A DNA stretch of 64,000 nt from Chloroflexota bacterium (GCA_019239775.1 JAFAZN010000231.1:12741-76740); one strand, 5' to 3'; positions 41,614 to 58,774 are shown, counted from the first letter of the stretch. Program-made: numbers and translations. The notes: generated from the sequence alone by a model not told the origin.

Positions 41614-41643
41614 AAGGCGATTGCTATACTTGGTCGGCGCTAA

Positions 41644-41715
41644 GCCGACGTAGCTCAGGGGTAGAGCAATGCTTTCGTAAAGCATGGGTCGGGGGTTCGA
41701 ATCCCTTCGTCGGCT
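41644..41715 (+). tRNA. tRNA-Thr (anticodon CGT)
   Basis: Hand-folded cloverleaf: GCCGACG-TA-GCTC-AGGGGTA-GAGC-A-ATGCT-TTCGTAA-AGCAT-GGGTC-GGGGG-TTCGAAT-CCCTT-CGTCGGC-T. CCA is not encoded. Confidence 0.9.
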
Positions 41716-41796
41716 CCCACTTATTCGAGTTCAATTCAACCAGGATTGGACCCGTCCGGACGCCCTTAAGGCGCCGAGTACACCCATTCGTACACC

Positions 41797-42131: not shown

Positions 42132-42206
42132 TTACAGCAGCCGGCGCAGATCATCCACGCTCAGCCCAACTTTGACGTACGCGTAACACCGCAGGGGCTC
42201 ATGGAC
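42132..42206 (-). pseudogene. hicA: 3' remnant of a hicA-family toxin gene
   Basis: Only ~24 codons are open (..YAYVKVGLSVDDLRRLL*), resembling a HicA C-terminus. It ends 17 nt upstream of the hicB start and the 5' two-thirds are missing. Confidence 0.4.
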
Positions 42207-42251
42207 TCATGCGCGGGTTCCGATAGTCGGAGCAACGAGGGGGTTTCGAGC

Positions 42252-42800
42252 ATGCGGGATCGTTTTGCGTTGGCTGGCGGGGGAAGTCTACTCGTGGCCA
42301 TCGTTCTCACGGCATGGTTCATTGTCAGCCGATCGGCTCCGGCGAATGATCAACCGCAGATCGCCGTCGATGTGCCTGCGCCGCGGCCTACCGCTACGCT
42401 AGCGACCTCGCCCACGCCTGTAGATCGCTCCGTTGCACTGGTGGTTCACCTGGATGGCATCTCAGGCTCGAGTAGCTTTGCCCAGGCCGGCGACCGTATC
42501 GATCTGTTGGCGTATCTGCCAGCTGAGCTCGCTGGTCAGGCCACCACTCGTGTGTTGTTGCACGATGTACTGGTCCTCGACTCTGGGACCGGCCCATCAG
42601 ATTCGGCACTGACGGTAGAGGTGTTACCCGAGGACGCCGTCCTGGTCGTGTCAGCTACGAACCTGGGGGCGAGGCCATTTGCGGTCATCCGCCCAGTCGA
42701 CACTACAGTCGATGCCCGCCTGCCAGATGGCGTGACGGATGAGGCCTTGCGAGCGCGCGTGGGCGGCCCTCCGATCCTTGCTGAGTCGTCGAGACACTGA
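42252..42800 (+). CDS. CpaB/RcpC-like Flp pilus assembly protein (short form)
   Basis: ATG at 42252 preceded by GAGGGGG. N-terminal TM helix, then GDRIDLLAY...TRVLLHDVLVLD...ALTVEVLPEDAVLVVSATNLGARPFAVIRP (RcpC-type C-domain). No clear SAF domain. Confidence 0.55.
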   Translation: MRDRFALAGGGSLLVAIVLTAWFIVSRSAPANDQPQIAVDVPAPRPTATLATSPTPVDRSVALVVHLDGISGSSSFAQAGDRIDLLAYLPAELAGQATTRVLLHDVLVLDSGTGPSDSALTVEVLPEDAVLVVSATNLGARPFAVIRPVDTTVDARLPDGVTDEALRARVGGPPILAESSRH

Positions 42801-43717
42801 TGCTCGGTCCGGATGCTGGCCTGATGATGGCGGTGGCTGCGCTTACGGGCGTCGGGGTCGGCTGCCTGGTGCTGGTTTTCATGCAGCGGCGAGCGCGTCG
42901 AGCACGCGGCCGCCGCATGGCGTTGTTGGTTGGCGTCGCGACGCCATCGAGCACAGCTAGCGAGTTCAGGTTTGCTCCGCAGCTCGCGGCATTCAATCGT
43001 GCCACCCAGCGTGCGCGCGGCATGCTACGAGCCCGAGCCGAGCTCGTTATTCGCCTGGCCACGCTGGCCGCCATCGGCTGCGCAATGGTTGGTCTGATCG
43101 GGGGACTGCCCGGTCTATTTCTCGTCACGGCCATTTGCGGGAGCCTGATCTTCTGGCTCCGCCGTGAATCCCAAGAACGCAATAAGCTGGATCGCCAGGC
43201 CGCGTCGGCATTCGAGATGCTGGCCAATGGCCTGCGCGCGGGCTACAGCATCCCGCAGGCAATCGCTCTGGTCGCGCGACAGAGCCCGCGGCCAACCGCC
43301 ACGGAATTCGCGACCGCCGAGCGCGAACTGACTCTCGGCTCGAGTCTGGCTGACTGTCTCGCGCGGCTCGCTGACCGGACTGCACTCGCTGACTACCGCC
43401 TGGTCAGCATCGTGATCTGGATCCAGTCCGAAGTCGGCGGCAATCTCCCGGTCGTCCTCGACGCCGTTGTCGCTACGTTGCGAGAGCGCATGGAGCTGCG
43501 CGATCAGGTCGCCGCGGTCACCGCCCAACAGCGCATGGCGTCCATGGTTTTGAGCCTGCTTCCGCTTGGGGTGCTGTTGCTGTTCATGGCGGTAGACCGC
43601 ACCTTCGTGGACCCGATGTTCACCCAGACGGTCGGGCGCGTCATGCTGACGATCGCGGCCATGTTGCTTGGCGCGGGCTGGTTCTTCATGCGCGCGGTAA
43701 GCAAGGTAGAGCTGTAG
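42800..43717 (+). CDS. tadB: TadB-like platform protein (T2SS-F family)
   Basis: FEMLANGLRAGYSIPQAI...ELTLGSSLADCL...IQSEVGGNLPVVLD...R, with flanking TM helices. Its ATG overlaps the upstream stop (TGATG). Confidence 0.75.
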   Translation: MLGPDAGLMMAVAALTGVGVGCLVLVFMQRRARRARGRRMALLVGVATPSSTASEFRFAPQLAAFNRATQRARGMLRARAELVIRLATLAAIGCAMVGLIGGLPGLFLVTAICGSLIFWLRRESQERNKLDRQAASAFEMLANGLRAGYSIPQAIALVARQSPRPTATEFATAERELTLGSSLADCLARLADRTALADYRLVSIVIWIQSEVGGNLPVVLDAVVATLRERMELRDQVAAVTAQQRMASMVLSLLPLGVLLLFMAVDRTFVDPMFTQTVGRVMLTIAAMLLGAGWFFMRAVSKVEL

Positions 43718-43719
43718 CG

Positions 43720-44637
43720 ATGCATCTCCCCGATCTGAGCGTGATCTTGCTCGCGGGTACCTGGAGCCTGGTCGCGGCGTTTGCCACTGCGTTCGTATTG
43801 CGCAGGCGTCGCCGCAAAGCGGTCCGGTCGCGCCTGGTCGCGCTTCACATCGGCGGCTTGCGACCACAGCCGGTGAGCAGTGCCCGGCCGAGGCTGTACT
43901 TCAATGCCGCCAAGTTCACCGCAATCGTCGCCAGGCGTGCGCCAAAATTGGTCGAGCGGCTGCAACACCAGATCGATGGCAGCGACCAGCTCGGCAAATT
44001 GACGTGGGTACGGTTGCTTTCGCTGCAAACCGCTTTCGCTGGGTGCGGATCCCTCGTCGGCGTTGTGCTGATGCTCAATCTCGGAGCACGAGGGATTGCG
44101 GTCGTCATCTTGCTCGGGGCTCTGGGCTGGTTCGCCCCCACGCTGTGGCTCGCTCAGCGGCGCCGCGCCCGCGTGCGCCAGATGACGCGTGATCTGCCGA
44201 CCGTCATCGATCTGTTGTCACTGAGCCTTCAGGCCGGTATGGGTCTGGACCGCGCGATTCGCGTCGTGAGTGAACGCGTGGAATCTCCACTCAGTGATGA
44301 GTTACGGCGCGTGCTGGGGGATATCTCGCTTGGTCTTTCCCGACGGGAGTCGTTTACACGCCTGTCAGACCGGCTGCAATCCGATGACATCCGGCTGTTG
44401 ACCACCAGCATCGTTCAGTCCGAGCAGCTTGGCACCAGCCTGGTCGGCACCATCAAGACTCAATCGCACCAGCTGCGCGTTTCCCGCCGGCGCGCCGCGG
44501 AAGCAGCCGCGCTCAAGGCGCCAATCAAGATGCTGGTTCCAATGGTGCTCTTCATCCTGCCAGCGCTGTTCCTCGTGGTGCTCGGTCCGGCGGGCATCAA
44601 TGTCGGCCTGGCGCTGACCGGCGGCGGGCACCCGTGA
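43720..44637 (+). CDS. tadC: TadC-like platform protein (T2SS-F family)
   Basis: DLPTVIDLLSLSLQAGMGLDRAI...LGLSRRESF...QSEQLGTSLVGTIKTQS...KAPIKMLVPMVLFILPALF. It starts 2 nt after the tadB stop. Confidence 0.75.
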   Translation: MHLPDLSVILLAGTWSLVAAFATAFVLRRRRRKAVRSRLVALHIGGLRPQPVSSARPRLYFNAAKFTAIVARRAPKLVERLQHQIDGSDQLGKLTWVRLLSLQTAFAGCGSLVGVVLMLNLGARGIAVVILLGALGWFAPTLWLAQRRRARVRQMTRDLPTVIDLLSLSLQAGMGLDRAIRVVSERVESPLSDELRRVLGDISLGLSRRESFTRLSDRLQSDDIRLLTTSIVQSEQLGTSLVGTIKTQSHQLRVSRRRAAEAAALKAPIKMLVPMVLFILPALFLVVLGPAGINVGLALTGGGHP

Positions 44638-45023
44638 TCGGGCGGCACAACGCCCAGGCGGCGGTGGAATTCGCATTGACGATGCCGCTACTGATGCTGT
44701 TGCTGCTTGGCATCCTCGATGCAGGCAGGGCCGTCGTCGCGGCGGTTTCGATTGATAACGCGGCCCGCGAAGGTGCACGCTACATCGCCGTTCACTTCAA
44801 CGACGGAACGTGCGCCAGCCCGAACTGCCAGACGGAGGCCAGGCAGGTCGTCCTCAACAGCGCGCTCGCACTGGATTCGGGCCAGCTGAGCTCGACCGTG
44901 ACGATCGCGGGCGGCAACGCGAGTATTTTGCTCAGCTACCCGTTCCAGCCCGTCGCGCCGCTCATCACCTCAGTATTCGGTACTCCCGTGCTGACAACGA
45001 CCAGCAGCATGCGGATCCGCTGA
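44634..45023 (+). CDS. TadE-like pseudopilin
   Basis: AQAAVEFALTMPLLMLLLLGILDAGRAV...NAAREGARY. The GTG start overlaps the tadC stop. Confidence 0.75.
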   Translation: MIGRHNAQAAVEFALTMPLLMLLLLGILDAGRAVVAAVSIDNAAREGARYIAVHFNDGTCASPNCQTEARQVVLNSALALDSGQLSSTVTIAGGNASILLSYPFQPVAPLITSVFGTPVLTTTSSMRIR

Positions 45024-45078
45024 CTCTGCTCACCTATCCATCCTGCAATCAACCCACGCTCGTTTACAGGAGAACTTC

Positions 45079-45579
45079 ATGGACACCGCCAACGTCGACC
45101 TGTTTCTTTCTACGCGCCGCCTGCGAGCTGAAATTCCGCTCCGCGGCTTCAGCCGCCTATCGGACGTGCTGAACAACACGCCGGGCGACTTTCTCGCTGG
45201 AACGCTGCGCGGAATCAGCGACGTCCGCTTCTCGGTCAAGCCACTGGCCGACGGATCGGTCGAGCGCGACCTGGTGGTGCGGATCCAGGATGTGTTGATG
45301 GTGCAGCCACTCGACCCGCCCACAGTGTCTCCGGGTTCAACGGCAGAGCGCCGCGATCGCATCCTGCAGCGCATGGTGCTGGAATTGGGCGATTGGCGTC
45401 TGGAAGGCAGCCTGCACCTCGTCGACTGCGTGCGTTGGGTGGACTTTGCGACTGCCAACAATGAACGGTTCCTCGCCATGACGCAGGCTACCGTGGCCAT
45501 GCCTGGCGCCGAGGCGTCATTCGAGAGCTCGTTGGTGCTGGTCAACGGCGCACGGGTCAGCGCGCTCTACGAGTGCTAA
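45079..45579 (+). CDS. hypothetical 166-aa soluble protein in the tad operon
   Basis: AGGAGA lies 5 nt upstream of the ATG. Same strand, 55 nt after tadE-like. No family recognised. Confidence 0.6.
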   Translation: MDTANVDLFLSTRRLRAEIPLRGFSRLSDVLNNTPGDFLAGTLRGISDVRFSVKPLADGSVERDLVVRIQDVLMVQPLDPPTVSPGSTAERRDRILQRMVLELGDWRLEGSLHLVDCVRWVDFATANNERFLAMTQATVAMPGAEASFESSLVLVNGARVSALYEC

Positions 45580-45604: not shown

Positions 45605-46654
45605 CTAGGTGGTCAGAACGACGACCGCGTTGCCCTGAAGCGGCCCGCTCTGGCGGGCGGTACTGGTCGGATCGACAACATACGGCAGGAAGTAGCCGAT
45701 CAAATGCGTCGTGGAGATCTGGCTTTGCTGCAGATAAAACCGCGCAAAGCCAACGATTGTCACCGTTGGCCCCCCACATGGGTTGCACAGCGGCACGTCG
45801 AGCAAGATGTAAGGCGGGACTCCCATCCCGTTGTACGTCGGGTCGTTCGGCAGATTTTGCCGCCGAACATTGTCCTGTAGCCCGGTTTGCACGTCGGTCG
45901 CATAGCCTGCTCCGGCCAATCCGACCGTCGAGCCCACCGCCAGCGTGCCAACGGCATGGCTGCCATCTGACCAGTACTGCATGCTGGTATGCGCGTTGCC
46001 GTACAAAGGTGCAGTCGACCCGCCGCTTCCTGCACTCGTGGTTAAATCCAGAAATGGCGCAGCCAGGCTGTAGAGGTCGTATGCGTTGCCACCGCTAGCC
46101 ACATAGGACGCCCGCGGTATCACGAGCGGCACCATAGTCGTCAGCGAGGTCGGTGGCGCAACAGGTACTAGGCGCGCTTGTGAAGTGGCGCTGATCTGAA
46201 TGTTGCCCAGGCCAACGAAAGGCATCAGCACCGTATGGAAGGCTCCGTTCAGGGATACCTGGACGCCTGCGCTCGTCACGGGCATCATGCCACCGCCAAC
46301 CGTGCCGACAGTCGCGCCAGTCTGATCCACATACATTGCCTGGAGGGCAGCGTCGGTGGGGACGGACACCTGGTTCTGGGTAGCCATGCTCTGAGCCTGT
46401 CCAAGCACGGCCGAATCGAGATACACCCGCGATGTTTGCTCGTCCAGCACACGCCACGTCGCCGCGAGCGCCATCGCGTCGGCCGCATTCTGCAGATGGC
46501 GGCGCTGAACGAGGAAGAAACCCATGTTCAGGACAAGACCAACGAAGGCGAGAACGCCTACCAGCGCGAACGCGGTGAAGACGAGTGCCTGCCCGCGGGT
46601 GCGTCCTCGGGCGGTCTGAGCTAAGGAAGGCCTTCGAAATGCCGATACTTGCAT
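45605..46654 (-). CDS. TadG-like (Tad N-terminal domain) pilus-associated protein
   Basis: ATG at 46654 (MQVSAFRR...). RGQALVFTAFALVGVLAFVGLVLNMGFFLVQRRHLQNAADAMALAA is typical of the TadE/G-like N-domain. The track start at 46837 overlaps the divergent gene. Confidence 0.65.
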   Translation of the reverse strand: MQVSAFRRPSLAQTARGRTRGQALVFTAFALVGVLAFVGLVLNMGFFLVQRRHLQNAADAMALAATWRVLDEQTSRVYLDSAVLGQAQSMATQNQVSVPTDAALQAMYVDQTGATVGTVGGGMMPVTSAGVQVSLNGAFHTVLMPFVGLGNIQISATSQARLVPVAPPTSLTTMVPLVIPRASYVASGGNAYDLYSLAAPFLDLTTSAGSGGSTAPLYGNAHTSMQYWSDGSHAVGTLAVGSTVGLAGAGYATDVQTGLQDNVRRQNLPNDPTYNGMGVPPYILLDVPLCNPCGGPTVTIVGFARFYLQQSQISTTHLIGYFLPYVVDPTSTARQSGPLQGNAVVVLTT

Positions 46655-46709
46655 GGATGCTGACGACGGAGAAGCGGCCGAGTATACGTTCTGTCCCCAG
46701 GGACGCCAA

Positions 46710-47690
46710 ATGAACGTGCTCAACCGCTGGCGCACGTTCACCGAGCGACGCGCAGTGGCTCGATTGACTGGCCCTGTGATAGCGGCCGGCGTCGGGGTGT
46801 TTACGTTCGCCGCCGTACTGCTCGTACTCAGTTCCACTTTGAACGGTCAGACGCAAAACACAGCGCCAGCAAGTGCGGCGACACCCGTCGAAGAGGCGCC
46901 ACAGCCTACCGCCGTCGTCGCTGCGGCAAACATTTCGATCTCGACACATCTACCGCCGGGCCACGTAGCGATCGGGGTGCCGTTTTCGGGCGGCAGTGCG
47001 CCACTGAACGAAATCCACGTTGGCGTCCATGTCGACGTGCTGGCTTCGTTCCCCGAAAGCGCGTCGGGCCCTGGCTTTGTGGGCCAGATCGTCTCGGGCG
47101 CGCAAGTGCTGCAGCTGGCCGCCAGCGGCGATCACTCGGCGTCGGCATTGCTCGACGTGCCCGCGGAATCGGGCATGTGGCTGGGCCATCTGGTTCGCGA
47201 GGGTGTGCCGCTGACCTACACCGTCCGCACCGAGCAGCAGACCGGCTCGGCGTATCCCTCACTCACGGCGTCCGAGGTTCTAGCGCGTTTGACTGGCCTG
47301 CGCGCGAGCGGCAAACCCACGGCGGTACCAGCGGCCACTCCTGAACCTCAGACGGTGCAAGATCACGAGGTGTCGCAGGTCGACTTCGTGGCGTACGAAG
47401 GGGTGACAGTAACTGACATCCAACAGCGGTTTGGCGTGACCGAGGCCGCGCTGCGGGCAGCCAATCCGACCGTGGACGACATTGCGGTTCTGGAACCGGG
47501 AACGGAATTGGTTATTCCGGGTCTCTATGGCTTTGCGTACACCGTGCGGGTGGGCGATACGTGGACGTCGCTATCGAGTACCTTCGGCATCTCAGTTGAA
47601 GCACTTGCGCGCGTTAACGGCCTGCCCGAAGAGACGCTGCCAGCAGTCAATACCCTGCTGTTGATCCCTGCGCCGGGCCACGCGCCTTAG
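46710..47690 (+). CDS. CpaB/RcpC-like protein fused to two C-terminal LysM domains
   Basis: ATG at 46710 (MNVLNRW) and a TM helix. GHVAIGVPF...GVHVDVLASF...IVSGAQVLQL...GVPLTYTVR (RcpC-like). Two LysM-like repeats follow (YEGVTVTDIQQRFGVTEAALRAANP...; YTVRVGDTWTSLSSTFGISVEALARVNGL...). Confidence 0.6.
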   Translation: MNVLNRWRTFTERRAVARLTGPVIAAGVGVFTFAAVLLVLSSTLNGQTQNTAPASAATPVEEAPQPTAVVAAANISISTHLPPGHVAIGVPFSGGSAPLNEIHVGVHVDVLASFPESASGPGFVGQIVSGAQVLQLAASGDHSASALLDVPAESGMWLGHLVREGVPLTYTVRTEQQTGSAYPSLTASEVLARLTGLRASGKPTAVPAATPEPQTVQDHEVSQVDFVAYEGVTVTDIQQRFGVTEAALRAANPTVDDIAVLEPGTELVIPGLYGFAYTVRVGDTWTSLSSTFGISVEALARVNGLPEETLPAVNTLLLIPAPGHAP

Positions 47691-48865
47691 CGCGCGTCTG
47701 GTGCGACCGCGGCGGCCATTTCGCGTACTTTGGCAACGAGCGGATCGAAGGCTTGCTGGAATTGCGCACCAAGCGTAGGCCTACCGTCATTGATCGACTC
47801 GGTGAGCTGAGCGCCCACGCTTGGGAGCTTCAGGATCTGACGGGTGCCCACAACGCCGGCGACGTCGTCGAATGTCAGCCCGCCAGTACTGTTGGCTCTG
47901 TTGAGCACGAAAATCATGCGTTCTCTCGAGTAGCCGAGTCGCTCCGCAAGGCCAAGGTACTGGTGCACATTGCGTAGCGCCCCAAGCGTCGCGGTCATCA
48001 CGATGACCTGAACGTCGGCCACGTCAAGTGAGGCCAGCGCGCGTTCGTCGTAGAAGCGAGCTGTGTCGGTGACGACCCATTCGTAGGATCGCGCCAAGGC
48101 GCTCAAAACACTGCGCATGTGGTCACTCGAGACAGTGTCGACCAGTTCTGGGCGATTCGGACGGTCGAGTAGTCCAACGCCGCTGCCGTGCTTGGCGACG
48201 GCACTCTCGATCGTCGAGGAGTCCAGCGCGTCGATGTGCGGCAGCAAATCAATGACTGAATGCTCGCCAGCCATACCGAGATGAATTCCCGCATCACCGT
48301 ACTGCAGGTCGGCATCGAACAGGAGAACAGACCGTTGCGTCTGTCGGCGCAGCGAGAGAGCGAGATTTGCGGCGACCGTCGTGCTGCCGACGCCACCTTT
48401 TGTGCCAAGTACCGCAATCCGCTTGCCGAGCGCCAGTGAGACGGGCGGCGGCGCCTTGGTGACTGTGGTCACTCGACGACCTTGCAGGCGTTGGTGGGTC
48501 TCACGGACGGTCTGCAGCAGGCTCTCACCGTTGCCAAAGGGTTTCAAGACGTAGCCCTGGGCACCGGCACTCATGGCCTTTTGCAGGAAGTCGATGCGCT
48601 CTTCGGACGTGACCATGATGACGGCGCCGTTTGGCACTTGCGACGACACAAGCCACGTGGCCTGGATTCCATCCATGTCCGGCATGTGGATGTCCATGAG
48701 CACCACATCCGGTTGCAGCTCACTCGCCCGCCGCACCGCATCCTGACCGCTCGAGGCGTTTGCCACGACCTGCATGTCCTGCTGCTCTGCGATCAGCTGC
48801 GTAAGATGCGCACGCTGCAGCGCGCTGTCGTCAGCTATCAGGATCCTGATGCGCTGTTCAGTCAT
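47687..48865 (-). CDS. response-regulator receiver fused to a CpaE/TadZ-type MinD/ParA ATPase
   Basis: ATG at 48865 overlaps the kinase stop (ATGA). IRILIADDS...VVLMDIHMPDMDG...VIMVTSE...YVLKPF (canonical REC), then VLGTKGGVGSTTVAANLA (deviant Walker A). Confidence 0.8.
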   Translation of the reverse strand: MTEQRIRILIADDSALQRAHLTQLIAEQQDMQVVANASSGQDAVRRASELQPDVVLMDIHMPDMDGIQATWLVSSQVPNGAVIMVTSEERIDFLQKAMSAGAQGYVLKPFGNGESLLQTVRETHQRLQGRRVTTVTKAPPPVSLALGKRIAVLGTKGGVGSTTVAANLALSLRRQTQRSVLLFDADLQYGDAGIHLGMAGEHSVIDLLPHIDALDSSTIESAVAKHGSGVGLLDRPNRPELVDTVSSDHMRSVLSALARSYEWVVTDTARFYDERALASLDVADVQVIVMTATLGALRNVHQYLGLAERLGYSRERMIFVLNRANSTGGLTFDDVAGVVGTRQILKLPSVGAQLTESINDGRPTLGAQFQQAFDPLVAKVREMAAAVAPDAR

Positions 48866-51800
48866 GCCGCTTTCGGCAATTGGAGCAGTTCGAAGGCCTT
48901 CCGGGCGCGGTCCAGTGCGGCGTCCAGCTGCGGAACCAGTAGCTCGCACCCGTCCAGCTCGCCAGCGCGGCCGCGCTGTTCGAGTTCGCGGCAGAGCACC
49001 GCCACCTCGAGCGCGCCGACACTCGCAGCGTCGCCCTTGAATGCGTGCGCTGCCTTATGTAGTGCAGTTGAATCGCCGCCAGAAACCGCGGCCCTGACGT
49101 GTTCAAAACGTGATGCCGTTTCCTCGAAGAAGATGCTCAAGAGATTATCCCGCAAGCTGGCGGGCAGTGTCTCCAGGGTGGCTTTATCGAGCGCCTCAGG
49201 TTTTGGTTCCGGAGCGGGCGGCCCCTCGACATCGGGTGCGGCTGTTGCTCCAGCACAGCGTGCGAGGGCGGCCGACAAGTCGTCGAGACGCACAGGCTTG
49301 GACACGTAGTCATCCATCCCGGCCTCGATGCACCGCTCTCGGTCGCCGGCCATGGCGTTAGCCGTCATGGCGATGATGGGTAGCCGAGGCCCAGAGCCCT
49401 GGCGATTGCGAATCTCACGCGTGGCACCGAAACCGTCCATCTCTGGCATCTGACAGTCCATCAATACCACGGCATAGGTGGTACTTTCGATCGCTTCGAG
49501 CGCTTCGAGACCGTTGTTGACAACGTCGGCTTCCAGTCCGAGCTTGGCGAGCAAACCGAGCGCCACCATCTGGTTGACCTTGGAGTCCTCCGCCACCAGC
49601 AGTCTGCCCGGCAGATGCAGGGTTGGTCGTTGCTGCATGAGCCTGTTGCGTAGTGGCGCAATGGCTTGGGAACCCTGAAATGCCTCCGCGAGCACGTCGA
49701 ACAATTGCGATGGGCGGATTGGCTTGGTCACCTGGCCTGCGACGCGCAAGCCGTGTTCCGGCTCGCCTTGCAGACCCAGGAGCACCAGTTTGACCGTGCT
49801 CAGCGCCGGGTCCTCCGCGACGACGCGTTCGAGCTCTCCGCCATCGGTGCTCGCGATCCGCACGTCCACGAGGCAGGCAGCAAACGGCTGCTGGAGATCG
49901 ACTGCGCTGCGCAAAGCCACCAGCGCGGCACTTGAGCTCTCGGCCTCATCGGCGACCATTCGCCAGGCGGCCAGGTGGTCGCGCAGCATCTCGCGACTGG
50001 CTCGACTCTCATCAACGATCAGGACACGCCGGCCTTCGAACGCCGAAAAGTCAGTCACGTCCTCCGCTTGTGGGCCGGCCTCGAAAGATGCGGTGAACCA
50101 GAACGTGCTGCCGTGGCCGAGCTCGCTGTCAACGCCGATCTCGCCGTCCATCATATCCACGAGTCGGCGGCAGATCGCGAGGCCGAGTCCCGTGCCGCCA
50201 AACTGGCGGGTAGTCGACCCGTCCGCTTGCACGAAAGGCTGGAACAGACGTTCGCGGCTCTCTTGGCTGATGCCGATGCCGGTATCAGACACCTCGAAGC
50301 GCACCTTGACGCAATCGTGATCGTTCTCGACGATCCGCGCTCGCACGACGACTTCGCCCTGATGCGTGAACTTCACCGCGTTCCCGGCCAGGTTGAGCAG
50401 AATCTGCCGCAACCGAGTTGGGTCGCCGCGAAGCGTTCTCGGGATGTCATGACCGATCACGCAAGCCAGCTCGACGCCCTTCTTGTATGCCGCCTTGCCG
50501 AGCAACTCGGCCACATCTTCCGCGACGTCGCGCACGTCCATGTCGACCCGTTCCAGGACGAGCTTGCCCGCTTCAATCTTCGAGAAGTCGAGTATATCGT
50601 TGATCAATGTCAGTAGCGCCTCACCCGACCTGCTAAGTGCCTCGACGTATCCAACCTGCCGAGGCGTCAGATCGGTGTCCAGCAGCAGCTCAGTCATGCC
50701 GATCACACCATTCATCGGCGTGCGGATTTCATGGCTCATGGTCGCCAGGAACTCGCTCTTCGCGCGACTCGCATCGAGCGCTGCGTCGCGAGCTTCGGCC
50801 AGCGCCAGCAGCATCACCTCGCGCTCGGTGAGATCTGTGACCGCCATCACCAGTCCTTCGAATTCTGTGCTTTTGAAGCGCGCCGCGACGGTGATCAAGG
50901 CGCGGAAAGTGGATCCGTCCAGGCGCGTCAGCTGCGCGTCGAAGCTGCCGATTTCGGTGCCCCAATCGCGCAGGTCGATCGCCGTGAGCGCTTCGCGATC
51001 CTCATCGCAGTAGAAGTCGAGGACCGACTTTCCGAGCAAGTCCTCCGAATTGCAGCCGAGCATCTGGGCAAGTGCGGGGTTCGCGTATAAGAAGTGGCCG
51101 CCCGGCCCGGTGACACCCAGGCCCTGCGCCATCGTAGTGAGCACTAGCTGGGCGAAATCACGCTCGTCCTGCAGTTTGGTCTCGGCTTCTTTGCGTTCGG
51201 TGACGTCGTGGCTGACGACCACGAAATGAGTCACCGCGTCGAGCTCCCCGCGCACGGGTGTGATTGTCATTTCCTCGTTGTAAGGCGTTCCATCCTTGCG
51301 GCGGTTGACAATCACGCCCTTCCAACTTCGCCCGGCTAGCACCGTTCGGCGGATGTCGGCATAGACCTCGGGCGACTCGGGTTCGGACTTCAACATGCTG
51401 AGCGCGTGACCGCGCGCCTCTTCCACTGTGTAGCCCGTCAACTCCGAGAATGCCGCGTTGGCCCATTCGATCGCTCCCTGGCCATCCGTCAAGACGATCG
51501 CGTTGGCGCTCGCCTCCAATGCCGTGGTCAGGAGTTGTTGCCGAGCAGCAGACTGACGCTGCGCAGTAATGTCGCGCGCGATGGCTTCGAAGCCAACCAG
51601 CGTGCCGCCATCATCGACGACCATCTGGACGTGCTGGCCAAGCCAGAGGAGTTCGCCGTCAGACCGTGCGCACGGGAACTCGTAGTAGGTGCTGACGACG
51701 CGGTCGCGGACCTGTCGTCTGTAAAAGCGGGCGGCTTCACGACGAAAATCGCTGTGGATCAACTCCAGGTAATGACGGCCCAGGATCTCTTCAGAGGTGT

Positions 51801-52962
51801 AGCCGGTCACCTGGGTAGCGACAGGGTTGGCGAAGGTGAAACGGCCACGCCCATCGGTGCGATAGATGATGTCTCGGGCGTGTTCAACCAGGTGAACGGT
51901 GCGCGCCTCGTTTTCGCGCGCTCTCTCCGCTATGTCTTGAAATTGCCGCACCTCGACCTGCACGTCGTCGGCCATCGAGTCGAATGCATGGCGAAACCTC
52001 CGTGCGAGGCGACGCCACCACAAGAAGCTGAATAAGACAATCGCCGCAGAGACCAGCGCTCCGAGCACCAGTTGGCGTGTCGCTGACTCGTAGTCCGAGC
52101 CAGTGACCAGGTCGCTGGGTTCCGTGACCACGGCTGCCCACGGTGTGCTCGCGACCCTGGTTGAGGCCTCTAGCCAATCACGGCCGTCTGCCGCCAGCAC
52201 GTGCCGGGTCGCGTCCTCGCCACGCAGGTCGTCGAGTAGATCATGATTGACTTCGGTCGCCCACAGGGCCGGGGCCTTGCTCTGTCCCAGGACGGCGCCA
52301 GTGCGCAGATCGACCAGCGATGCCGAAGCGCCACGGGGTAGGTCGAGCGTGCTCCATCCGGCTAGTGAGCCGCCCAGGCGCAACCCAGCAACGATGTATC
52401 CGTGATGCAAGCCATTTGGCTCGTCGATGGGCACCGCGATCGGCAGGAGCACGGGTGTGCCTGGGTCGGCGAGCTGCATTTGAGTGGGGTCACCGAAGGC
52501 GATCATGTGGGTCGCCGCAGCGTCCTCAACGTACGGGCTCGACGTGAAGTCGGCGCGCGCCTCCACGGGTGCGTCGACCGAATGCCCGTGATCCATAAGG
52601 TCTTCGCCAACAAAGGTGAGACCGGAGAACAGCTCTGAGTTTCCGTTCATCGCGACAAGAAGCGCGTCGCGGCTGGCGTCTGTGCCATCCCAGAAGCCGG
52701 GCAGACGCGCGGCAGTGGCGCTCGCACGGCGCAACTGGTCGACTACGTCCACCAGTTGCACAGCCGCGGACCTGGTCTGGAGCGACGCTTGCCGTAGGGC
52801 CGTTGCTTCCGCGTCCTGCTTGGCTCGGTGGATTCCCAACAGAGTGCCCGTACAGCTGAGCAGCAACATTGCTCCGATCAGGCAGGCAAAGCGTGCCCCG
52901 ACCGACAGGCGGCCCTGATTGAACTGCGCCAAGCCGCGCGTCAGATGCGGTGTGGACTTCAT
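48862..52962 (-). CDS. hybrid sensor histidine kinase: TM, extracytoplasmic Cache-like region, TM, multiple PAS, HisKA, HATPase, REC, REC, Hpt
   Basis: H-box FLATMSHEIRTPMNGV, N-box LLNLAGNAVKFT, G-boxes DTGIGIS and GGTGLGLAI, REC VVLMDCQMPEMDG...YVSKPV, Hpt HKAAHAFKGDAASVG. 1366 aa. Confidence 0.9.
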   Translation of the reverse strand: MKSTPHLTRGLAQFNQGRLSVGARFACLIGAMLLLSCTGTLLGIHRAKQDAEATALRQASLQTRSAAVQLVDVVDQLRRASATAARLPGFWDGTDASRDALLVAMNGNSELFSGLTFVGEDLMDHGHSVDAPVEARADFTSSPYVEDAAATHMIAFGDPTQMQLADPGTPVLLPIAVPIDEPNGLHHGYIVAGLRLGGSLAGWSTLDLPRGASASLVDLRTGAVLGQSKAPALWATEVNHDLLDDLRGEDATRHVLAADGRDWLEASTRVASTPWAAVVTEPSDLVTGSDYESATRQLVLGALVSAAIVLFSFLWWRRLARRFRHAFDSMADDVQVEVRQFQDIAERARENEARTVHLVEHARDIIYRTDGRGRFTFANPVATQVTGYTSEEILGRHYLELIHSDFRREAARFYRRQVRDRVVSTYYEFPCARSDGELLWLGQHVQMVVDDGGTLVGFEAIARDITAQRQSAARQQLLTTALEASANAIVLTDGQGAIEWANAAFSELTGYTVEEARGHALSMLKSEPESPEVYADIRRTVLAGRSWKGVIVNRRKDGTPYNEEMTITPVRGELDAVTHFVVVSHDVTERKEAETKLQDERDFAQLVLTTMAQGLGVTGPGGHFLYANPALAQMLGCNSEDLLGKSVLDFYCDEDREALTAIDLRDWGTEIGSFDAQLTRLDGSTFRALITVAARFKSTEFEGLVMAVTDLTEREVMLLALAEARDAALDASRAKSEFLATMSHEIRTPMNGVIGMTELLLDTDLTPRQVGYVEALSRSGEALLTLINDILDFSKIEAGKLVLERVDMDVRDVAEDVAELLGKAAYKKGVELACVIGHDIPRTLRGDPTRLRQILLNLAGNAVKFTHQGEVVVRARIVENDHDCVKVRFEVSDTGIGISQESRERLFQPFVQADGSTTRQFGGTGLGLAICRRLVDMMDGEIGVDSELGHGSTFWFTASFEAGPQAEDVTDFSAFEGRRVLIVDESRASREMLRDHLAAWRMVADEAESSSAALVALRSAVDLQQPFAACLVDVRIASTDGGELERVVAEDPALSTVKLVLLGLQGEPEHGLRVAGQVTKPIRPSQLFDVLAEAFQGSQAIAPLRNRLMQQRPTLHLPGRLLVAEDSKVNQMVALGLLAKLGLEADVVNNGLEALEAIESTTYAVVLMDCQMPEMDGFGATREIRNRQGSGPRLPIIAMTANAMAGDRERCIEAGMDDYVSKPVRLDDLSAALARCAGATAAPDVEGPPAPEPKPEALDKATLETLPASLRDNLLSIFFEETASRFEHVRAAVSGGDSTALHKAAHAFKGDAASVGALEVAVLCRELEQRGRAGELDGCELLVPQLDAALDRARKAFELLQLPKAA

Positions 52963-53105
52963 TGCGTCGGCGGGCTCCGGCTTCAGGTATCGGCACGTCA
53001 GGACGCCAGCTTGAGCCCGTCCGGCCTATCAACGACTAGCGGCTAGCCCGATGGTGACTTGCGGCTCTCGGGATTGTGACCGCTCGAAACGAGAATCGAA
53101 ATGGC

Positions 53106-54371
53106 ATGTCGGACCGGTTCAAGGGCCAATCCATCGTCGAGTTTGCCCTCATGGTCCCCGTGCTGCTCGTCCTGGCGTTAATCACTCTCGACGTTGGGCG
53201 TCTGTACGTCTTCTGGGTGGACCTGTCGAACGCCGCGCGCGAAGGCGCGTACGTGGCCTCGATCGCCTATTCGGGCGCCACGCCGAACGCAACGGTCGTC
53301 GACGCGGTCATCAACGAGAATCCCTCGCTGGGCCTTCAGGCCAGCCAGGTCAGCGTGAGCTACCTGTCCGCCGGCACCATCGTCAGCGTCCAGGTGAGCT
53401 ATCCGTTCCAGCCGATCGCCCCCCTGGTGCGCAGCGTGTTCGGCAACTCGCTGTCTGTCACCGCCAGCGCCGAGTTCCCGGTCCGACTCCAGCCAACCGT
53501 TGCGCCGACCGTGGCGCCCAGCACGGCGACACCTACCTCGACGCCTATACCAACAGCGACCAACACGCCAACCGCAACGCCGTCTCCGACTAATACGCCG
53601 ACCGCGACGGCCACGCCCACCAACACCCCAACTGCCACGCCGTCTCCGACCAATACGCCGACCGCGACGGCCACGCCCACCAACACGCCAACCGCAACGC
53701 CGTCTCCAACCAACACCCCAACCGCGACGACCAGACCAACGAATACGCCGACGTCGACCAACACGCCTACTCCAACGAACACACCCACCAAAACGCCGAC
53801 CCCAACAAATACACCGACAAACACCCCGTCACCAACCCCGTCGCCGACCAATACGCCAAGCCCGACGCCGACGCCGGTCGCTACCGTCGTTCTCGTCGGC
53901 GACACCACCATCGAGTCGCAAGATGACAGCATCTCGGGCGGTACTGCGTACGCCTATGTGTTCCAGGCCCAAGCCACCGGTACGAGCGGCAGAGCGCACA
54001 TCTATGTGGCCGCAGGCAGTGCCATCAGCAAGGTCATCGTAGGTCTCTACGCTGACGGCGGCGGACAGCCGGGTACGCTGCTCGGTACGACGTCGATCAG
54101 TGCACCGGCCGTAGGCGCCTGGAACACCGCTGCGCTCCCCGGTGTCACGGTGAGCAATGGCAATCTCTACTGGATCGCGGTGCTACCTATCGGCAACCAC
54201 GTGGTTGTCGAAGACCGTCCTGCCGATTTCTTCTGGTTGCTGTGGTGGTTCCTCAATGGCTCGCCGCCGGCTGAAGCGAGTTCCTCGAGCACGCTCACAG
54301 CGCTGCCCGCGACGTGGGCCGCGGGCAGCGACGCGTTCGCCTACTACGTCTCGGCCTACGTCACCAATTGA
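53106..54371 (+). CDS. TadE-like pseudopilin with a prepilin motif, long Pro-Thr linker and ~170-aa C-terminal globular domain
   Basis: [32 protein letters not shown] (G/xxxxEF), NAAREGAY, then ([10 protein letters not shown])n, then a beta-rich C-domain ([15 protein letters not shown]...[10 protein letters not shown]). GTG at 53076 is an alternative start. Confidence 0.75.
53527..53878 (+). repeat. Coding tandem repeat (Pro-Thr linker) containing three ~60-bp units at 53560, 53620 and 53680
   Basis: Units 53560-53619 and 53620-53679 differ at only a handful of positions. Flanking copies are more degenerate. Confidence 0.9.
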
Positions 54372-54413: not shown

Positions 54414-57167
54414 TCAGCTTGCGTCCGCCCGCGCCAGTATCTCCGCGATCACACGCCCCGGGACCCGCCAGTTCGGCTCTGTCGGCCGATGGTTGTTCGG
54501 CGCGTTTCGATCATTGAAATACACCAACGCTCGCACCAGGGGATACTCCGAGAGCGCGTTCAGTCCGCTCTCGAGCCAGGTGCGCTGCTCATCCTCCGTT
54601 CCAGATGTGCCGACTTCCGCGAGTAGGACCGGTTTGCCCAGGTTTGCCACCTCGGCGTAGCGCGGTTGCAAGATCTGGGACAGGGAGCGCGGCGTCTCAA
54701 AGCCCATGTCCCAGTCCCATTCGGCGTCCCCGAGCACCGTCAGGCCAACATAGTCGACCACGTCCGCACCGGGGTCGTACGCGGTGGCCCCCGCCTCCCC
54801 GGCCGGCGACCACACCCAGCGCGCATTCGTCGCGCCTTCGGCTCTGAAGACACTGACTACATGACGGAACGCCGCGCGATAGCTGTTCGGGTCGTTCGCC
54901 GACCATGGATACAGTCCACTCAAATCCATTTCTTGACCCCAGCGCAGTAGGACGACCTGTGGCTGCCGTTCCGCGACGAGCCGAGCTGCCGCACGCAGCT
55001 CATCGTCCGCCAGTCCCCAGCTCACCCGCTCGAGAACGGGCATGTGCTCACGGTGCGGGAAGGGCTCGATCGTGATCATAGGCACGCGGCCCGATTTGGC
55101 GGCGTGGTCCAGGGCGTCGGCAAACAGGCGGGGATCGTCCTGACGGACGTACCAGTGCTCGATGCCGAGCTGGAGATCAGCGCCGTCCTGCCAAGGGTCA
55201 TAGGCGCCGATCAGTATCCGGCTATCCGACGCCTGGATCTGGTTCAGTGCCGGCGGATTGATGGGCGCTTCTTTCTGCGGCGCAACGGGAACCGGCTCAT
55301 TCTCAATAGCCTCGGCCAGGTCCGCCCTAGCCTGAGCAGTCGCGATCCTCGATTCGTGGTCGCGAGAAGAGGCCGCAACGGATTCGGTCGACTCTAAAAC
55401 TTGACGTGCGGCGGACGCGCCCGGAGAGAGGGCATCGGACGCGGCGTCACTGCTGTTCCAAACCGCGGCGGCGACCAGCAAATCGTGGCTTGCGCACGCG
55501 GTAAGGGCCAAGCTGCAGGAAACGACAGCAACCGTGGCGAGCATCGAGCCCCGCAGACGCAGTGCTCGCACCCGACTTTGTCCTCGTCGATGCAACTCGA
55601 GCAGGTCCATGCTGACGTTTGTTACGACGACCCACAGCATGTAGGCGGCCCCCAGCAACGCGAACGCCACGTACCCGTCGACCTGATCATCGGTGTCCGA
55701 CAGTAGATAGCGCCAGACAATGCCGAGGCCGATCACGACCATCGACAAGTAGACCGCTTGTGACCTGAGGCTGAAAACGGGTACTGCGGCGGTTTCGCCT
55801 TTTGGCGTAATCATGTACGGGTGGCGAATGTGCAGTACTGCGTTGACCAGTGCCCACAACACAATCGGCCAGCGGGCTATGTGCAGCACGATTCCGCGCC
55901 AGGAGAGTCCGAGCCCTTGCGGGAGCTGCCAGCGCCGCGTCCAGCGCCAAGCGACATAGGCGGTAAGTGCCTGCGGCATGCTCGCCGCGCCGAACTGCCA
56001 CAGCACCGATCGAGCCGGCTGGCGGCCCGTTAAGAGCGCAAGAAGGGGTATCCCGAACAGCACGAGCATGCTGGCCGACCAGAGCGGATACCACGTTTCG
56101 GCGAATAGAACCTGCACCGCCTGACCAAAGCGGTACCGACTGACGAGGCGCGGCGTGAAACTAAACAGCACTTGGATCATCGACAGCGCCCAAGCAAATT
56201 GCTGGCGCAGGTAGGTTTCGAAAGTCTCGGGTCCGTCGCCTACAGCTAGGGTCTCAGGGACGAACACACCTCGGTACCCATGCGCTGCGAGCACCACGGT
56301 ATCGAGATGGTCCTCGGCGCGCGTCGGTTGAAAGCCGCCGATCTCGTTGATCGCACTTGTGCGATAAGTGGAGTGCGACCCGATGATGAACGGGGTTTCA
56401 GAGTGCCCGAAGAAGCCGCGCTGGAGCGGGCCCTGGAGCACCAACTCTTGCTCAGCGGCGCCGCGAGCAACCCAGCTTTGGCCGACGTTGCCGTATAGCG
56501 ATGGCGCCTGGACCCAGGCGATACGGCTGTCCGCGAAATAACCCAACACCCGATGGATGTACTCGGGGTACGGCCGGTGGTCGATGTCGAACTGTGCGAA
56601 AAAGTCGTATGCCGCGCCGTGTGCGTCCAGCCAGGCATTGACGTTGCCCGCCTTGGTCTTGGCCTTGTACGGCGGCCGTGGTTGGTTGTAGTGCTCGATG
56701 CCCCGACGCGAGAAATACCTCACCCCAAAACGAGCCGCACTGGCTTGCACACGTGGATCGTTGCCTTCGTCCAGAATCCACGAGTCGTGCGGGTACCTGA
56801 CGTCGGCGAGTGCGGCGAGTTGCCGCTCGATGACGTCGAGTGTCTCCTGCGCGGGCACGCATAACGTGATGAGCGCGACGCGTCGACCGCAGGGAGCTGG
56901 CATGTGCCGCGGTCGCCGCATACGACCCACGAAGAACAGGTACATGCTGGGCAGGACCGTAGCCTCGTACGCCCAAGCCGCTGTGAACAATCCGTATAGC
57001 AGCAAGTCCCCGGCGTTACCGGGGCGCAGCCACCATGCCCAGAAGATGCTGTTGCCCGCGATCCACACGACGACCATCAGCCAATAGACAACCGCGTCAC
57101 CGTGGGTGAGAACTGCCTCCGATCGCACGCGTGCGCTTAGGTTCGGTGCGGTGTCGACCCCTCGCAA
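54414..57167 (-). CDS. processive GT2 (cellulose-synthase-like) glycosyltransferase fused via TM helices to a C-terminal GH26-like glycoside hydrolase domain
   Basis: ILDEGND, QFDIDHRP, FIIGSHSTYR, TRAEDHLDT and QQFAWA (QxxRW position) in the N-terminal half. The C-terminal half has LLRWGQEMD and VLLAEVGTSG, paralogous to the GH26-like protein at 57308. Confidence 0.8.
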   Translation of the reverse strand: MRGVDTAPNLSARVRSEAVLTHGDAVVYWLMVVVWIAGNSIFWAWWLRPGNAGDLLLYGLFTAAWAYEATVLPSMYLFFVGRMRRPRHMPAPCGRRVALITLCVPAQETLDVIERQLAALADVRYPHDSWILDEGNDPRVQASAARFGVRYFSRRGIEHYNQPRPPYKAKTKAGNVNAWLDAHGAAYDFFAQFDIDHRPYPEYIHRVLGYFADSRIAWVQAPSLYGNVGQSWVARGAAEQELVLQGPLQRGFFGHSETPFIIGSHSTYRTSAINEIGGFQPTRAEDHLDTVVLAAHGYRGVFVPETLAVGDGPETFETYLRQQFAWALSMIQVLFSFTPRLVSRYRFGQAVQVLFAETWYPLWSASMLVLFGIPLLALLTGRQPARSVLWQFGAASMPQALTAYVAWRWTRRWQLPQGLGLSWRGIVLHIARWPIVLWALVNAVLHIRHPYMITPKGETAAVPVFSLRSQAVYLSMVVIGLGIVWRYLLSDTDDQVDGYVAFALLGAAYMLWVVVTNVSMDLLELHRRGQSRVRALRLRGSMLATVAVVSCSLALTACASHDLLVAAAVWNSSDAASDALSPGASAARQVLESTESVAASSRDHESRIATAQARADLAEAIENEPVPVAPQKEAPINPPALNQIQASDSRILIGAYDPWQDGADLQLGIEHWYVRQDDPRLFADALDHAAKSGRVPMITIEPFPHREHMPVLERVSWGLADDELRAAARLVAERQPQVVLLRWGQEMDLSGLYPWSANDPNSYRAAFRHVVSVFRAEGATNARWVWSPAGEAGATAYDPGADVVDYVGLTVLGDAEWDWDMGFETPRSLSQILQPRYAEVANLGKPVLLAEVGTSGTEDEQRTWLESGLNALSEYPLVRALVYFNDRNAPNNHRPTEPNWRVPGRVIAEILARADAS

Positions 57168-57307
57168 CGTGAGCAGTCATTGTGCAAGTAACCTGCCAGG
57201 CTTCGGTGGACGTCGCCAGCTGAACACCGCTCGCGCGGGGGATCCCCCATCAGGGGGCTGTATTGACCCCTGTGGGGCGGGATGCACACACACCGACGCG
57301 GCGATGC

Positions 57308-58390
57308 TTGAATGTGAATACTCGAGCGGGCTGGCTGGTGGCGCTGCTGTTGTGCCTTAGCACGGCGCTGACGGCTGACCTAGCGTATGCTGCCGGCGTC
57401 GATGCCACGGCAGCTACCGACCTTCAGACTGCGGCCGCACCTGACCTGAGTCGTCCGCCAGTGCCGTACTCAGCCAACGACTCGGCGGTCGCACTTGGCA
57501 TTTATCGTCCGAGTCTGCCTGACGACCTTTCTTCTCTCGCTGTTGAGGAGCGTGCCCTCACACACCCGGTGTCGATTGTCCACTGGTTTGCGCTTTGGGG
57601 AGGCTGGAAGAGCGCCTTCAGTCGCACCGATCTGGATGTGGTGAGTGCGCACGGTTCTTTGCCGATGATCACCTGGGAGCCGTGGGCAGGGGTCGGCGCC
57701 GACCCGAGCTGGTCGCTCAAGTCGGCCATTTTGTCGGGCCGTATGGACGCATACATCGCGTCCTGGGCGGAGGGTATGGCTGCGTACGGCAAACCTGTGC
57801 TACTGCGATTCGCCCACGAAATGCACAACCAGCCGAACTACGCGTGGGCGGTGGGTGTAAATGGCAACACGGCCGCCGATTACGTGGCGGCATGGAGATA
57901 TGTCCGCGGGTTCTTCCAGCGTGCAGGGGCCACCAACGTGTTGTGGGTGTGGAATCCGAATACTCTCGGCGATGCGCCCGCGCTTTCGTACTCGTCTGTG
58001 TATCAGTCCCTATACCCGGGCGATGACGAGGTCGACTACGTCGGTCTTGATATCTACAACACCGGTCCGGCCCTCAACTGGGGGGCGCCGTACTGGCGGA
58101 GCTTCGCTGCCGCGTTGTCCCAGCCCTACGCAGCGATCACGAGTGTCTCATCGAGGCCGGTGATTCTGCCTGAGGTCAGCTCAGGTGAAGTTGGCGGATC
58201 GAAGGCAGCCTGGATACAGGCTGCCTTAACGAGCGGCCTGAATCAGTTTCCGAAAGTTCGCGCGCTGGTTTGGTTTGACGTGAACAAAGAGCTGCCCTGG
58301 AACTTGGGCTCGAGCGACTCGAGTCTAGCCGCCTGGTTAGCGGTGAGCGGGTCGCAACGTTTCGACGTTGGCCCTACCGTTCCCAGCTGA
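57308..58390 (+). CDS. secreted GH26-like glycoside hydrolase
   Basis: Signal-like WLVALLLCLSTALTADLAYAAG. LLRFAHEMHNQPNYAW and VILPEVSSGE (candidate acid/base and nucleophile Glu). Start is TTG 57308 or GTG 57314; the track start at 57263 is less likely. Confidence 0.75.
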   Translation: MNVNTRAGWLVALLLCLSTALTADLAYAAGVDATAATDLQTAAAPDLSRPPVPYSANDSAVALGIYRPSLPDDLSSLAVEERALTHPVSIVHWFALWGGWKSAFSRTDLDVVSAHGSLPMITWEPWAGVGADPSWSLKSAILSGRMDAYIASWAEGMAAYGKPVLLRFAHEMHNQPNYAWAVGVNGNTAADYVAAWRYVRGFFQRAGATNVLWVWNPNTLGDAPALSYSSVYQSLYPGDDEVDYVGLDIYNTGPALNWGAPYWRSFAAALSQPYAAITSVSSRPVILPEVSSGEVGGSKAAWIQAALTSGLNQFPKVRALVWFDVNKELPWNLGSSDSSLAAWLAVSGSQRFDVGPTVPS

Positions 58391-58477: not shown

Positions 58478-58774
58478 ATGACGTTCAAACGCCCAACGCC
58501 TCGCGATGCCGCCCGCCAGCCGGATACGTCCAACGCAGCACATGACCAGACGCAGCGCTCGCCTTATAGCGCGCGAGCGCTTGGCATCCGCGCTGAGTTA
58601 GGAAGTCGATTACAGGAATTGCGGCTGATGCAACTCGAACTAGAGCGCCACGGCGGTAGCCGGGAGGACTCTGCGACCGTGGTTGACGCTGCCAAACATG
58701 TCGAGGCTGCCATGGCAGCACTCTCGCGAGTGGGTGGCGGTGGCCACGATCAGAACGCGACACCGAAAGAATGA
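58478..58774 (+). CDS. hypothetical 98-aa protein (weak call)
   Basis: ORF with A/T-ending codons atypical for this genome. No SD and no family recognised. Confidence 0.3.
   Translation: MTFKRPTPRDAARQPDTSNAAHDQTQRSPYSARALGIRAELGSRLQELRLMQLELERHGGSREDSATVVDAAKHVEAAMAALSRVGGGGHDQNATPKE

Follow-up and report, generated by a model that had tools for sequence, protein, structure and literature searches.

TadZ and CpaE, as studied in E. rectale (TadZ, 3FKQ), Aggregatibacter (TadZ) and Caulobacter (CpaE), join a receiver fold to a MinD/ParA ATPase domain whose Walker A motif is deviant (KGGxGxT). TadZ binds ATP and hydrolyzes it poorly (PMC13170226). The receivers of the studied proteins are described as atypical (10.64898/2026.07.08.737194; PMC11217815; PMC13170226) and non-phosphorylated (10.64898/2026.07.08.737194; PMC13170226), and the literature treats TadZ/CpaE as a localization hub with a dead receiver. 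Here, we analyzed a stretch of 64,000 nucleotides from a soil bacterium of the Chloroflexota (GCA_019239775.1, JAFAZN010000231.1:12741-76740; hereafter, the window), in which a CpaE-like protein with a canonical receiver, REC-CpaE, is encoded directly after a hybrid histidine kinase that ends in a histidine phosphotransfer (Hpt) domain. An annotation made from the sequence alone (the original prediction) had called the studied receivers atypical, as the literature indeed describes them, and had suggested that recruitment or positioning of the machinery may be gated at this locus by a multistep phosphorelay ending on the TadZ-type protein.

In Caulobacter, CpaE was modeled in situ as six dimers that ring the CpaF hexamer; contacts between neighboring dimers are made by the receiver-like domains, and the position of the ring differs between the piliated and non-piliated states (PMC13170226). 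In the control of type IVa pili (Pil-Chp PilG/PilH; Synechocystis Tax1 PixG/PixH; Xanthomonas DrdR acting on PilB/PilT), a receiver protein relays a Che or phosphorelay signal post-translationally to the cytoplasmic side of the type IV filament machinery (PMC11181946, PMC13507683), as REC-CpaE is proposed to do. The type IVa receivers are single-domain or PATAN-fused CheY-like proteins, separate from the machine, that bind motor or polarity factors. In contrast, the receiver in the window is fused to the TadZ-type hub of the machine itself, which belongs to the Tad class of machines. In Pseudomonas aeruginosa, the two-component system PprAB is tied to Tad/Flp pilus biology (PMC3510237). PprB is a DNA-binding regulator of transcription, and pprA and pprB adjoin the tad/flp locus. 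Unlike PprB, REC-CpaE has an assembly ATPase-like hub as its own output domain.

REC-CpaE possesses a canonical receiver and a TadZ-type ATPase domain

REC-CpaE (P0003, 392 aa) is encoded on the minus strand at 47687-48865, and the hybrid kinase (P0002, 1366 aa) on the same strand at 48862-52962; both open reading frames (ORFs) lie where the original prediction had placed them. The start codon of REC-CpaE (ATG, 48865-48863) and the stop codon of the kinase (TGA, 48864-48862) form a 4-nt ATGA overlap at 48862-48865, which is read directly from the minus-strand sequence: GCGGCATGACTGAA. The longest frame of REC-CpaE opens at an upstream GTG (48949), and homologues open at the position of ATG 48865. 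Because the closest homologue (73% identical) opens with MTDQRIRVL, which matches MTEQRIRIL of REC-CpaE, ATG 48865 was adopted as the start codon instead of the GTG.

In the Pfam analysis, Response_reg was detected at residues 8-119 (95 bits; cut-off, 30.2), and AAA_31, CbiA and ParA were detected from residue 148. The receiver domain (aa 8-119; 48509-48844, minus strand) aligns without gaps with the structures of an archaeal CheY and the Thermotoga CheB (6ekg, 3t8y). In this structure-based alignment, D12/D13, D58, T86 and K108 occupy the catalytic columns of the CheY and CheB receivers. Among 120 homologues (at least 51% identity), D12, D58, T86 and K108 are invariant wherever they are aligned, with the exception of one Ser at T86; for D13, conservation is at least 90% in a subset of 25 sequences. 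The four receiver motifs quoted in the original prediction were all present, and its acceptor Asp (Asp58; codon 48692-48694) was correctly assigned. Among the Pfam matches of REC-CpaE, no atypical-receiver (TadZ-specific) N-domain family was found. Furthermore, the score for TIGR03815 (NCBIfam CpaE_hom_Actino / Ssd) was 49.3 bits, below its cut-off of 154.45.

The MinD/ParA-type ATPase domain (aa 148-365; 47771-48424, minus strand) has the deviant Walker A motif KGGVGST. Its signature Lys156 is invariant among homologues, and the position of the classical P-loop Lys is S161 in REC-CpaE and A, S, R, K, T or G among homologues. The AF2 model of REC-CpaE (mean pLDDT 85) consists of a (beta-alpha)5 receiver with five strands and five helices (pLDDT about 77-94 over residues 1-130), a disordered linker (132-143), a MinD-like domain and a terminal helix at 374-386 (FDPLVAKVREMAAAV), a candidate for the C-terminal amphipathic, membrane-targeting helix of TadZ/CpaE proteins. 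In the Foldseek search with this model, the Chlorobium ParA-family ATPase 3ea0 ranked first. E. rectale TadZ (3fkq) ranked fourth and was the sole TadZ/CpaE-type structure in the list; it aligned over the full length (392 columns) with a TM-score of about 0.5, the orientation of the domains being different. Since the fold and architecture match 3fkq and 3ea0, and since the Walker A motif is deviant with a variable second Lys, like that reported for TadZ (PMC13170226), REC-CpaE was assigned to the TadZ family. REC-CpaE is best explained as a true response regulator with a TadZ/CpaE-type ATP-binding dimerization domain as its output. Like the genes for the studied proteins, the REC-CpaE gene lies among tadB-, tadC-, tadE-, tadG- and cpaB-like genes, and relatives elsewhere in the phylum lie directly upstream of cpaF. 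Unlike the studied TadZ/CpaE proteins, REC-CpaE has the full catalytic quintet, and its gene has no adjacent cpaF and has a putative Hpt donor encoded beside it.

A canonical receiver is usual for CpaE in Chloroflexota

A database search with REC-CpaE gave more than 1,200 matching clusters, the best 120 of which were inspected for PF00072. The receiver family was present in 119 of these 120, and the exception was a 289-aa fragment. REC-CpaE matches at E <= 1e-20 were detected in 234 of the 301 sampled Chloroflexota genomes, and well over 100 of them were full-length. The acidic pair, the acceptor Asp and the Lys are kept in all 26 homologues compared, and Thr or Ser is kept in 25. The gene order REC-CpaE, CpaF, TadB, TadC was observed in 17 of the 20 full-length Chloroflexota loci inspected, including that of the cultured Herpetosiphon; the REC-CpaE of one sampled genome is identical to the Herpetosiphon entry. 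Relatives in Kouleothrix and Roseiflexus are automatically annotated as "response regulator" or "pilus assembly protein CpaE".

These results show that CpaE ordinarily carries a canonical receiver throughout Chloroflexota, a form that is common yet uncharacterized. The rarity implied by the original prediction does not hold, because the canonical receiver occurs also in CpaF-adjacent operons and in cultured genera. Of the wording "common, characterised form in the clade", under which the prediction was to be given up, only the first adjective applies. In the literature searched, no paper joined CpaE, receiver and phosphorylatable. Censuses of response regulators may include a class of canonical-receiver CpaE. 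The cryo-electron tomography paper on Chloroflexales lists rcpC-tadZABC and is silent on the receiver (PMC7332563). A second search, based on the receiver motifs, gave 80 loci, among which L010-L016 contain full-length or near-full-length REC-CpaE. The other 73 match the receiver part alone, none of them past query residue 200, and are uninformative on other phyla.

Like REC-CpaE of the window, the CpaF-linked proteins of Herpetosiphon, Kouleothrix and Roseiflexus possess a canonical receiver and the same ATPase domain (31-40% identity). The two groups differ in their motifs (DIHMPD, VTSEER and KPFGNG in the window protein; DINMP and MSVQGE in the CpaF-linked proteins). They also differ in gene context: the CpaF-linked genes belong to cpaB-cpaE-cpaF-tadB-tadC operons to which no Hpt or kinase gene is linked, whereas the clade of the window protein has no CpaF and a linked Hpt.

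The hybrid kinase ends in a canonical receiver and an Hpt domain

In the kinase, Pfam detected three PAS domains, HisKA, HATPase_c, two Response_reg domains and Hpt. Kyte-Doolittle peaks were found at about aa 19-46 and 293-318, corresponding to two transmembrane helices around an extracytoplasmic region of about 250 aa (aa 19-318; 52009-52908, minus strand), and no Pfam match was detected between these two hydrophobic helices. The catalytic core (aa 734-959; 50086-50763, minus strand) consists of HisKA (734-799) with the H-box SHEIRTP and HATPase (846-959). Receiver 1 (about aa 979-1098; 49669-50028, minus strand) is degenerate in the alignment, keeping DE, Asp and Lys and lacking Thr/Ser and the MPxMDG loop. 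Receiver 2 (aa 1122-1233; 49264-49599, minus strand), found by both Pfam and alignment, has a complete set of ED, D, T and K. The Hpt domain (aa 1274-1355; 48898-49143, minus strand; 54.8 bits), HKAAHAFKGDAASVGA, contains the motif HKAAHAFKG and is 38-55% identical to the Hpt domains of homologous clusters. The domain content described in the original prediction was confirmed; of the two receivers, only the second is canonical.

The best NCBIfam matches of the kinase were of the BarA, TorS and ArcB type, and all were under their cut-offs (BarA, 457 against 890). Since a single chain combines HisKA, HATPase, receiver and Hpt, the kinase is classified as of the BarA/TorS/ArcB type and is not an orthologue of these proteins. 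A potential donor is thus encoded next to REC-CpaE: the kinase ends in a canonical receiver and an Hpt domain, and its gene overlaps that of REC-CpaE by ATGA, which supports a relay between the two proteins.

Hpt genes are linked to a clade of REC-CpaE without CpaF

In a maximum-likelihood tree, the window protein and its relatives (at least 47% identity) form a clade apart from the CpaF-linked REC-CpaE proteins, with support of 100/99. No CpaF was found in the fetched flanks of any locus of this clade, the clusters of which also lack Flp pilin and prepilin peptidase. An Hpt-bearing gene was present in the cluster at 11 of the 12 readable loci, in three architectures. In the first (the window and L005-7), a hybrid kinase-REC-Hpt gene lies directly upstream of REC-CpaE. 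In the second (L008/9, L012, L013 and C77, a contig of the source genome), a solo Hpt of 120-150 aa heads a convergent cpaB-tadB-tadC operon. In the third (L010/G131, L016, L140, L141 and L142), an Hpt-pseudoreceiver gene lies directly upstream, and it is usually the last gene of a CheW-CheR-MCP-CheA-CheB operon. This association gives strong comparative support to the predicted relay ending on the TadZ-type protein, as far as gene content and order can indicate it.

The Hpt-pseudoreceivers (L010, 3500-4330; L016, 9200-9990; L141, 9186-10004; L142, 9195-10001) are proteins of about 260-270 aa with a CheA-P1-like Hpt (AHSIKGGAAMLG) and a receiver-like domain. In the latter, the acceptor Asp is replaced by Gly (VVSGIE, VVAGVE). 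Their genes are located immediately upstream of REC-CpaE and often overlap its start.

The source genome (7.2 Mb) has seven Hpt matches and G131 has two, both upstream of its REC-CpaE. Each of five control genomes, all of them complete or near-complete, has one to four Hpt matches, and in none of the five was a match found within 300 kb, or on the same contig, of the CpaF-linked REC-CpaE. Since Hpt is rare in these genomes, its linkage to REC-CpaE is unlikely to have arisen by chance. An adjacent kinase as a general trait of Chloroflexota CpaE was considered and rejected, because the CpaF-linked loci have cpaB and unrelated genes upstream and no nearby Hpt.

These control loci bear on another explanation, namely that the receiver is phosphorylatable but the adjacent Hpt is not its donor. 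An orphan kinase or acetyl phosphate would then modify it, and the adjacency would be an operon of convenience. Such a donor must apply to the CpaF-linked CpaE proteins of Chloroflexota, since a kinase is not encoded next to them: in the four CpaF-linked loci with upstream ORFs listed, the gene directly upstream is cpaB and the operon adjoins neither a kinase nor an Hpt gene, and the five control genomes lack linkage as described. The receiver sequence is also very similar across the three Hpt classes. However, Hpt linkage at 11 of 12 loci in three independent architectures would have to be accounted for. So would the start of REC-CpaE in the window, L140, L141 and L142, where it overlaps or almost reaches the Hpt gene upstream, and the location of both G131 Hpt matches in the REC-CpaE cluster. 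We therefore regard an orphan donor within this clade as improbable, at a little over one chance in ten.

In the clade, mean pairwise identity is 76% for the receiver and, for the ATPase domain, 57%. Because the window and C77 paralogues have nearly identical receivers, a recent gene conversion was considered; it was rejected because the receiver is near-invariant clade-wide. Helix alpha1 is the usual partner-specificity surface of receivers. Among 12 sequences, compared only as identity within and between classes, helix alpha1 is 67% identical within Hpt classes and 40% between them, and the rest of the receiver is 85% and 77% identical, respectively. This is suggestive of partner-specific variation of alpha1 with the Hpt class, although the Hpt classes are also clades and the pattern is thus confounded by phylogeny.

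Tad platform and pseudopilin genes flank REC-CpaE in the window and eight other loci. This bears on the cargo of the protein, because REC-CpaE could be the output of a relay or chemosensory system whose cargo is not a Tad machine. It would then position arrays, like ParC or PpfA, or act like BcsQ for the GT2 synthase encoded at 54414-57167. ParA/MinD ATPases encoded by che operons are known to position arrays (PMC11407121). In four or five members of the clade, REC-CpaE is at the end of a Che operon, and three members (L016, L140 and L141) have no Tad genes nearby. A local match to CBP_BcsQ was also detected in REC-CpaE, and the gene for a GT2/GH26 fusion lies 1.5 kb past the kinase. The BcsQ match, however, covers the Walker A region only (residues 149-185), and the GT2 gene is not conserved beside homologues. 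Moreover, the clade is nearest to the CpaF-adjacent CpaE proteins of Chloroflexota in the tree, nine of the 12 loci have adjoining tadB-, tadC-, tadE-, tadG- or cpaB-like genes, and the Che operon of L142 shares a single cluster with the Tad genes. A non-Tad cargo is therefore unlikely, although it is conceivable for the members without Tad neighbors and we give it slightly more credit than the orphan donor.

A distant REC-ParA/CpaE-like paralogue (390 aa, 32% identity) was found in a control genome (L143, 8962-16308, in G263; also L144 and L145). Its gene comes after those for a hybrid kinase (1208 aa), a single-domain receiver and an Hpt-containing protein (731 aa), and no Tad genes are nearby. 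It looks like a second family of phosphorelay-fed MinD-like regulators in Chloroflexota.

Proposed phosphorelay to REC-CpaE

We consider it likely, though some way from certain, that a phosphorelay acts on D58 of REC-CpaE and controls ring assembly and the capture of CpaF in trans. The hybrid kinase would sense an extracytoplasmic and/or PAS-borne signal and autophosphorylate on His743. The phosphoryl group would pass from His743 to the canonical second receiver and then to the His of HKAAHAFKG in the Hpt domain, which would phosphorylate Asp58 of REC-CpaE. We infer this last transfer from genomic association. By analogy with the Caulobacter CpaE ring, phospho-D58 may switch receiver-receiver contacts, and phosphorylation would decide whether the ring forms on the TadB/TadC platform encoded beside it. 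The ring would then recruit a CpaF motor and pilins from other loci of the genome, since the island around REC-CpaE, described below, encodes no CpaF, pilin or prepilin peptidase. For the same reason, the recruitment of machinery that the original prediction had envisaged would have to use parts from elsewhere in the genome.

Sharing of a motor between Tad sets is plausible. It fits the gene content of a relative, G104 (96% complete), which has two sets of REC-CpaE, TadB and TadC and a single CpaF: the CpaF is located in the CpaF-linked operon on its contig C161, and the motor-less set of REC-CpaE, TadB and TadC is on C119.

Several points weigh against this relay. The literature searched contains no experimental work on canonical-receiver CpaE and no biochemistry of this family. 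The basal clade member L121 has no linked Hpt, and three members of the clade are without nearby Tad genes. The alpha1 pattern is confounded as stated above, and the kinase could also serve another regulator. Furthermore, the cluster in the window, lacking CpaF, Flp pilin and prepilin peptidase, may not build a pilus alone.

A wider reading, which we put forward only tentatively and hold to be rather doubtful, is that phospho-REC-CpaE is the steering output, via Hpt, of hybrid kinases and of complete Che systems in a soil Chloroflexota lineage. A ring closed by phosphorylation on the alternative, motor-less TadB/TadC platform would capture a shared CpaF, and signals would thereby choose which Tad machine is powered.

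The island surrounding REC-CpaE

The source assembly (7.2 Mb, 507 contigs) is 91% complete, and the contig of the window is 78 kb. The source names given for homologues assign the genome to Chloroflexota. A tRNA-Thr (CGT) gene was detected with ARAGORN at 41643-41719 (plus strand). Its 3' half is repeated directly at 58980-59026 (47 nt, 91% identical), 17.3 kb away. Between the tRNA gene and the repeat lie the Tad-like cluster, the genes for the kinase and for REC-CpaE, and the GT2/GH26 genes, and the segment bracketed in this way may be an integrated island. No integrase was recognized, and a 240-aa ORF (58485-59207) has no Pfam match.

Convergent to REC-CpaE, an operon of cpaB-like, tadB, tadC, tadE and orf166 genes occupies 42201-45579 (plus strand; Pfam RcpC, two T2SSF and TadE), and this gene order recurs in homologous clusters. 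The 166-aa ORF at its end (45079-45579, 3' of tadE) has a weak match to DUF6812. Since orf166 is kept at the matching position in the homologous motor-less clusters (L008, L012, L013, L014, L120 and C77), it is a real member of the module. A TadG-like pseudopilin (45605-46837, minus strand; Pfam Tad PF13400), the start codon of which is uncertain, is also kept in homologous clusters. The 3' end of a gene for a LysM protein (46653-47690, plus strand; two LysM domains in Pfam) converges on the end of REC-CpaE, and faint RcpC/LysM matches were detected at this position in L005-L009 and L013.

Divergent from the kinase, a 431-aa TadE-like protein is encoded at 53076-54371 (plus strand; Pfam TadE at 17-58); it has a linker of Pro/Thr repeats as well as a C-terminal domain. 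The linker corresponds to 12 overlapping copies of a repeat with a 30-nt period at 53527-53890. The equivalent protein in L006 carries Laminin_G_3, which suggests a pilus-displayed adhesin. The region 54414-58390, inside the bracketed segment, encodes the 917-aa GT2 glycosyltransferase with a C-terminal GH26-like region and a divergently transcribed 375-aa GH26-like paralogue.

No match to T2SSE (the CpaF/TadA-type ATPase) was detected anywhere on the 78-kb contig. The three CpaF genes of the genome are on other contigs (C161, C390 and C473), each with its own tadB and tadC, and Flp pilins and prepilin peptidase are also encoded elsewhere. No Flp pilin gene is present at 41.3-42.25 kb, which contains only the tRNA-Thr.

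The absence of CpaF, Flp and prepilin peptidase from the island and the 78-kb contig, together with the tRNA-Thr and the repeat bracketing the cluster, could also mean that the cluster is a non-functional remnant on an integrated island, a Tad set that has lost its motor, pilin and peptidase and leaves the regulator without a target. However, the same motor-less set, its ORFs intact, is found again in many genomes and metagenomes, as well as two more times in the source genome. The receiver is near-invariant across the clade, and no frameshifts were seen in the genes of the window. We consider decay very unlikely, more so than a non-Tad cargo or an orphan donor.

Of the paralogous clusters in the source genome, that on C77 (42-5199) contains REC-CpaE convergent with Hpt, cpaB-like, tadB, tadC and orf166 genes, and that on C281 (59-1879) contains tadG-like and tadE genes and a REC-CpaE fragment ending at the contig edge. 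Three further CpaE/TadZ-like ATPase domains are encoded on C95 (two genes, about 3034-5095) and C238 (14979-15542). Judged by eye from their motifs, their N-domains resemble a cyclic-nucleotide-binding (Crp-type) domain and not a receiver. The input domain of the CpaE/TadZ family therefore appears to be modular. Atypical-receiver TadZ proteins coexist with the canonical-receiver proteins in this genome: the TadZ on C390 (2148-3353), directly upstream of CpaF, has no acceptor Asp (SVEEP), and that on C164 (10059-10718), near a Flp-like gene, has kept the Asp and lost the acidic pair and the Thr.

Implications for Tad machines in Chloroflexota

The receiver treated as dead in TadZ/CpaE is kept alive in a whole phylum, and one clade hard-wires it to Hpt donors, including those of complete chemosensory operons. 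The live receiver throughout the phylum and the Hpt-wired clade together predict that Tad machines can be controlled directly and post-translationally by phosphorylation. The motor-less Tad sets raise the question of whether one CpaF serves several platforms. Chloroflexota have only Tad-type pili, and they have gliding and chemoreceptor arrays (PMC7332563). The pair of kinase and REC-CpaE offers a concrete, testable link from sensing to the motility apparatus in this phylum. If phospho-REC-CpaE were indeed a steering output, it would supply the link that is missing from chemoreceptor arrays to gliding based on Tad pili in Chloroflexota.

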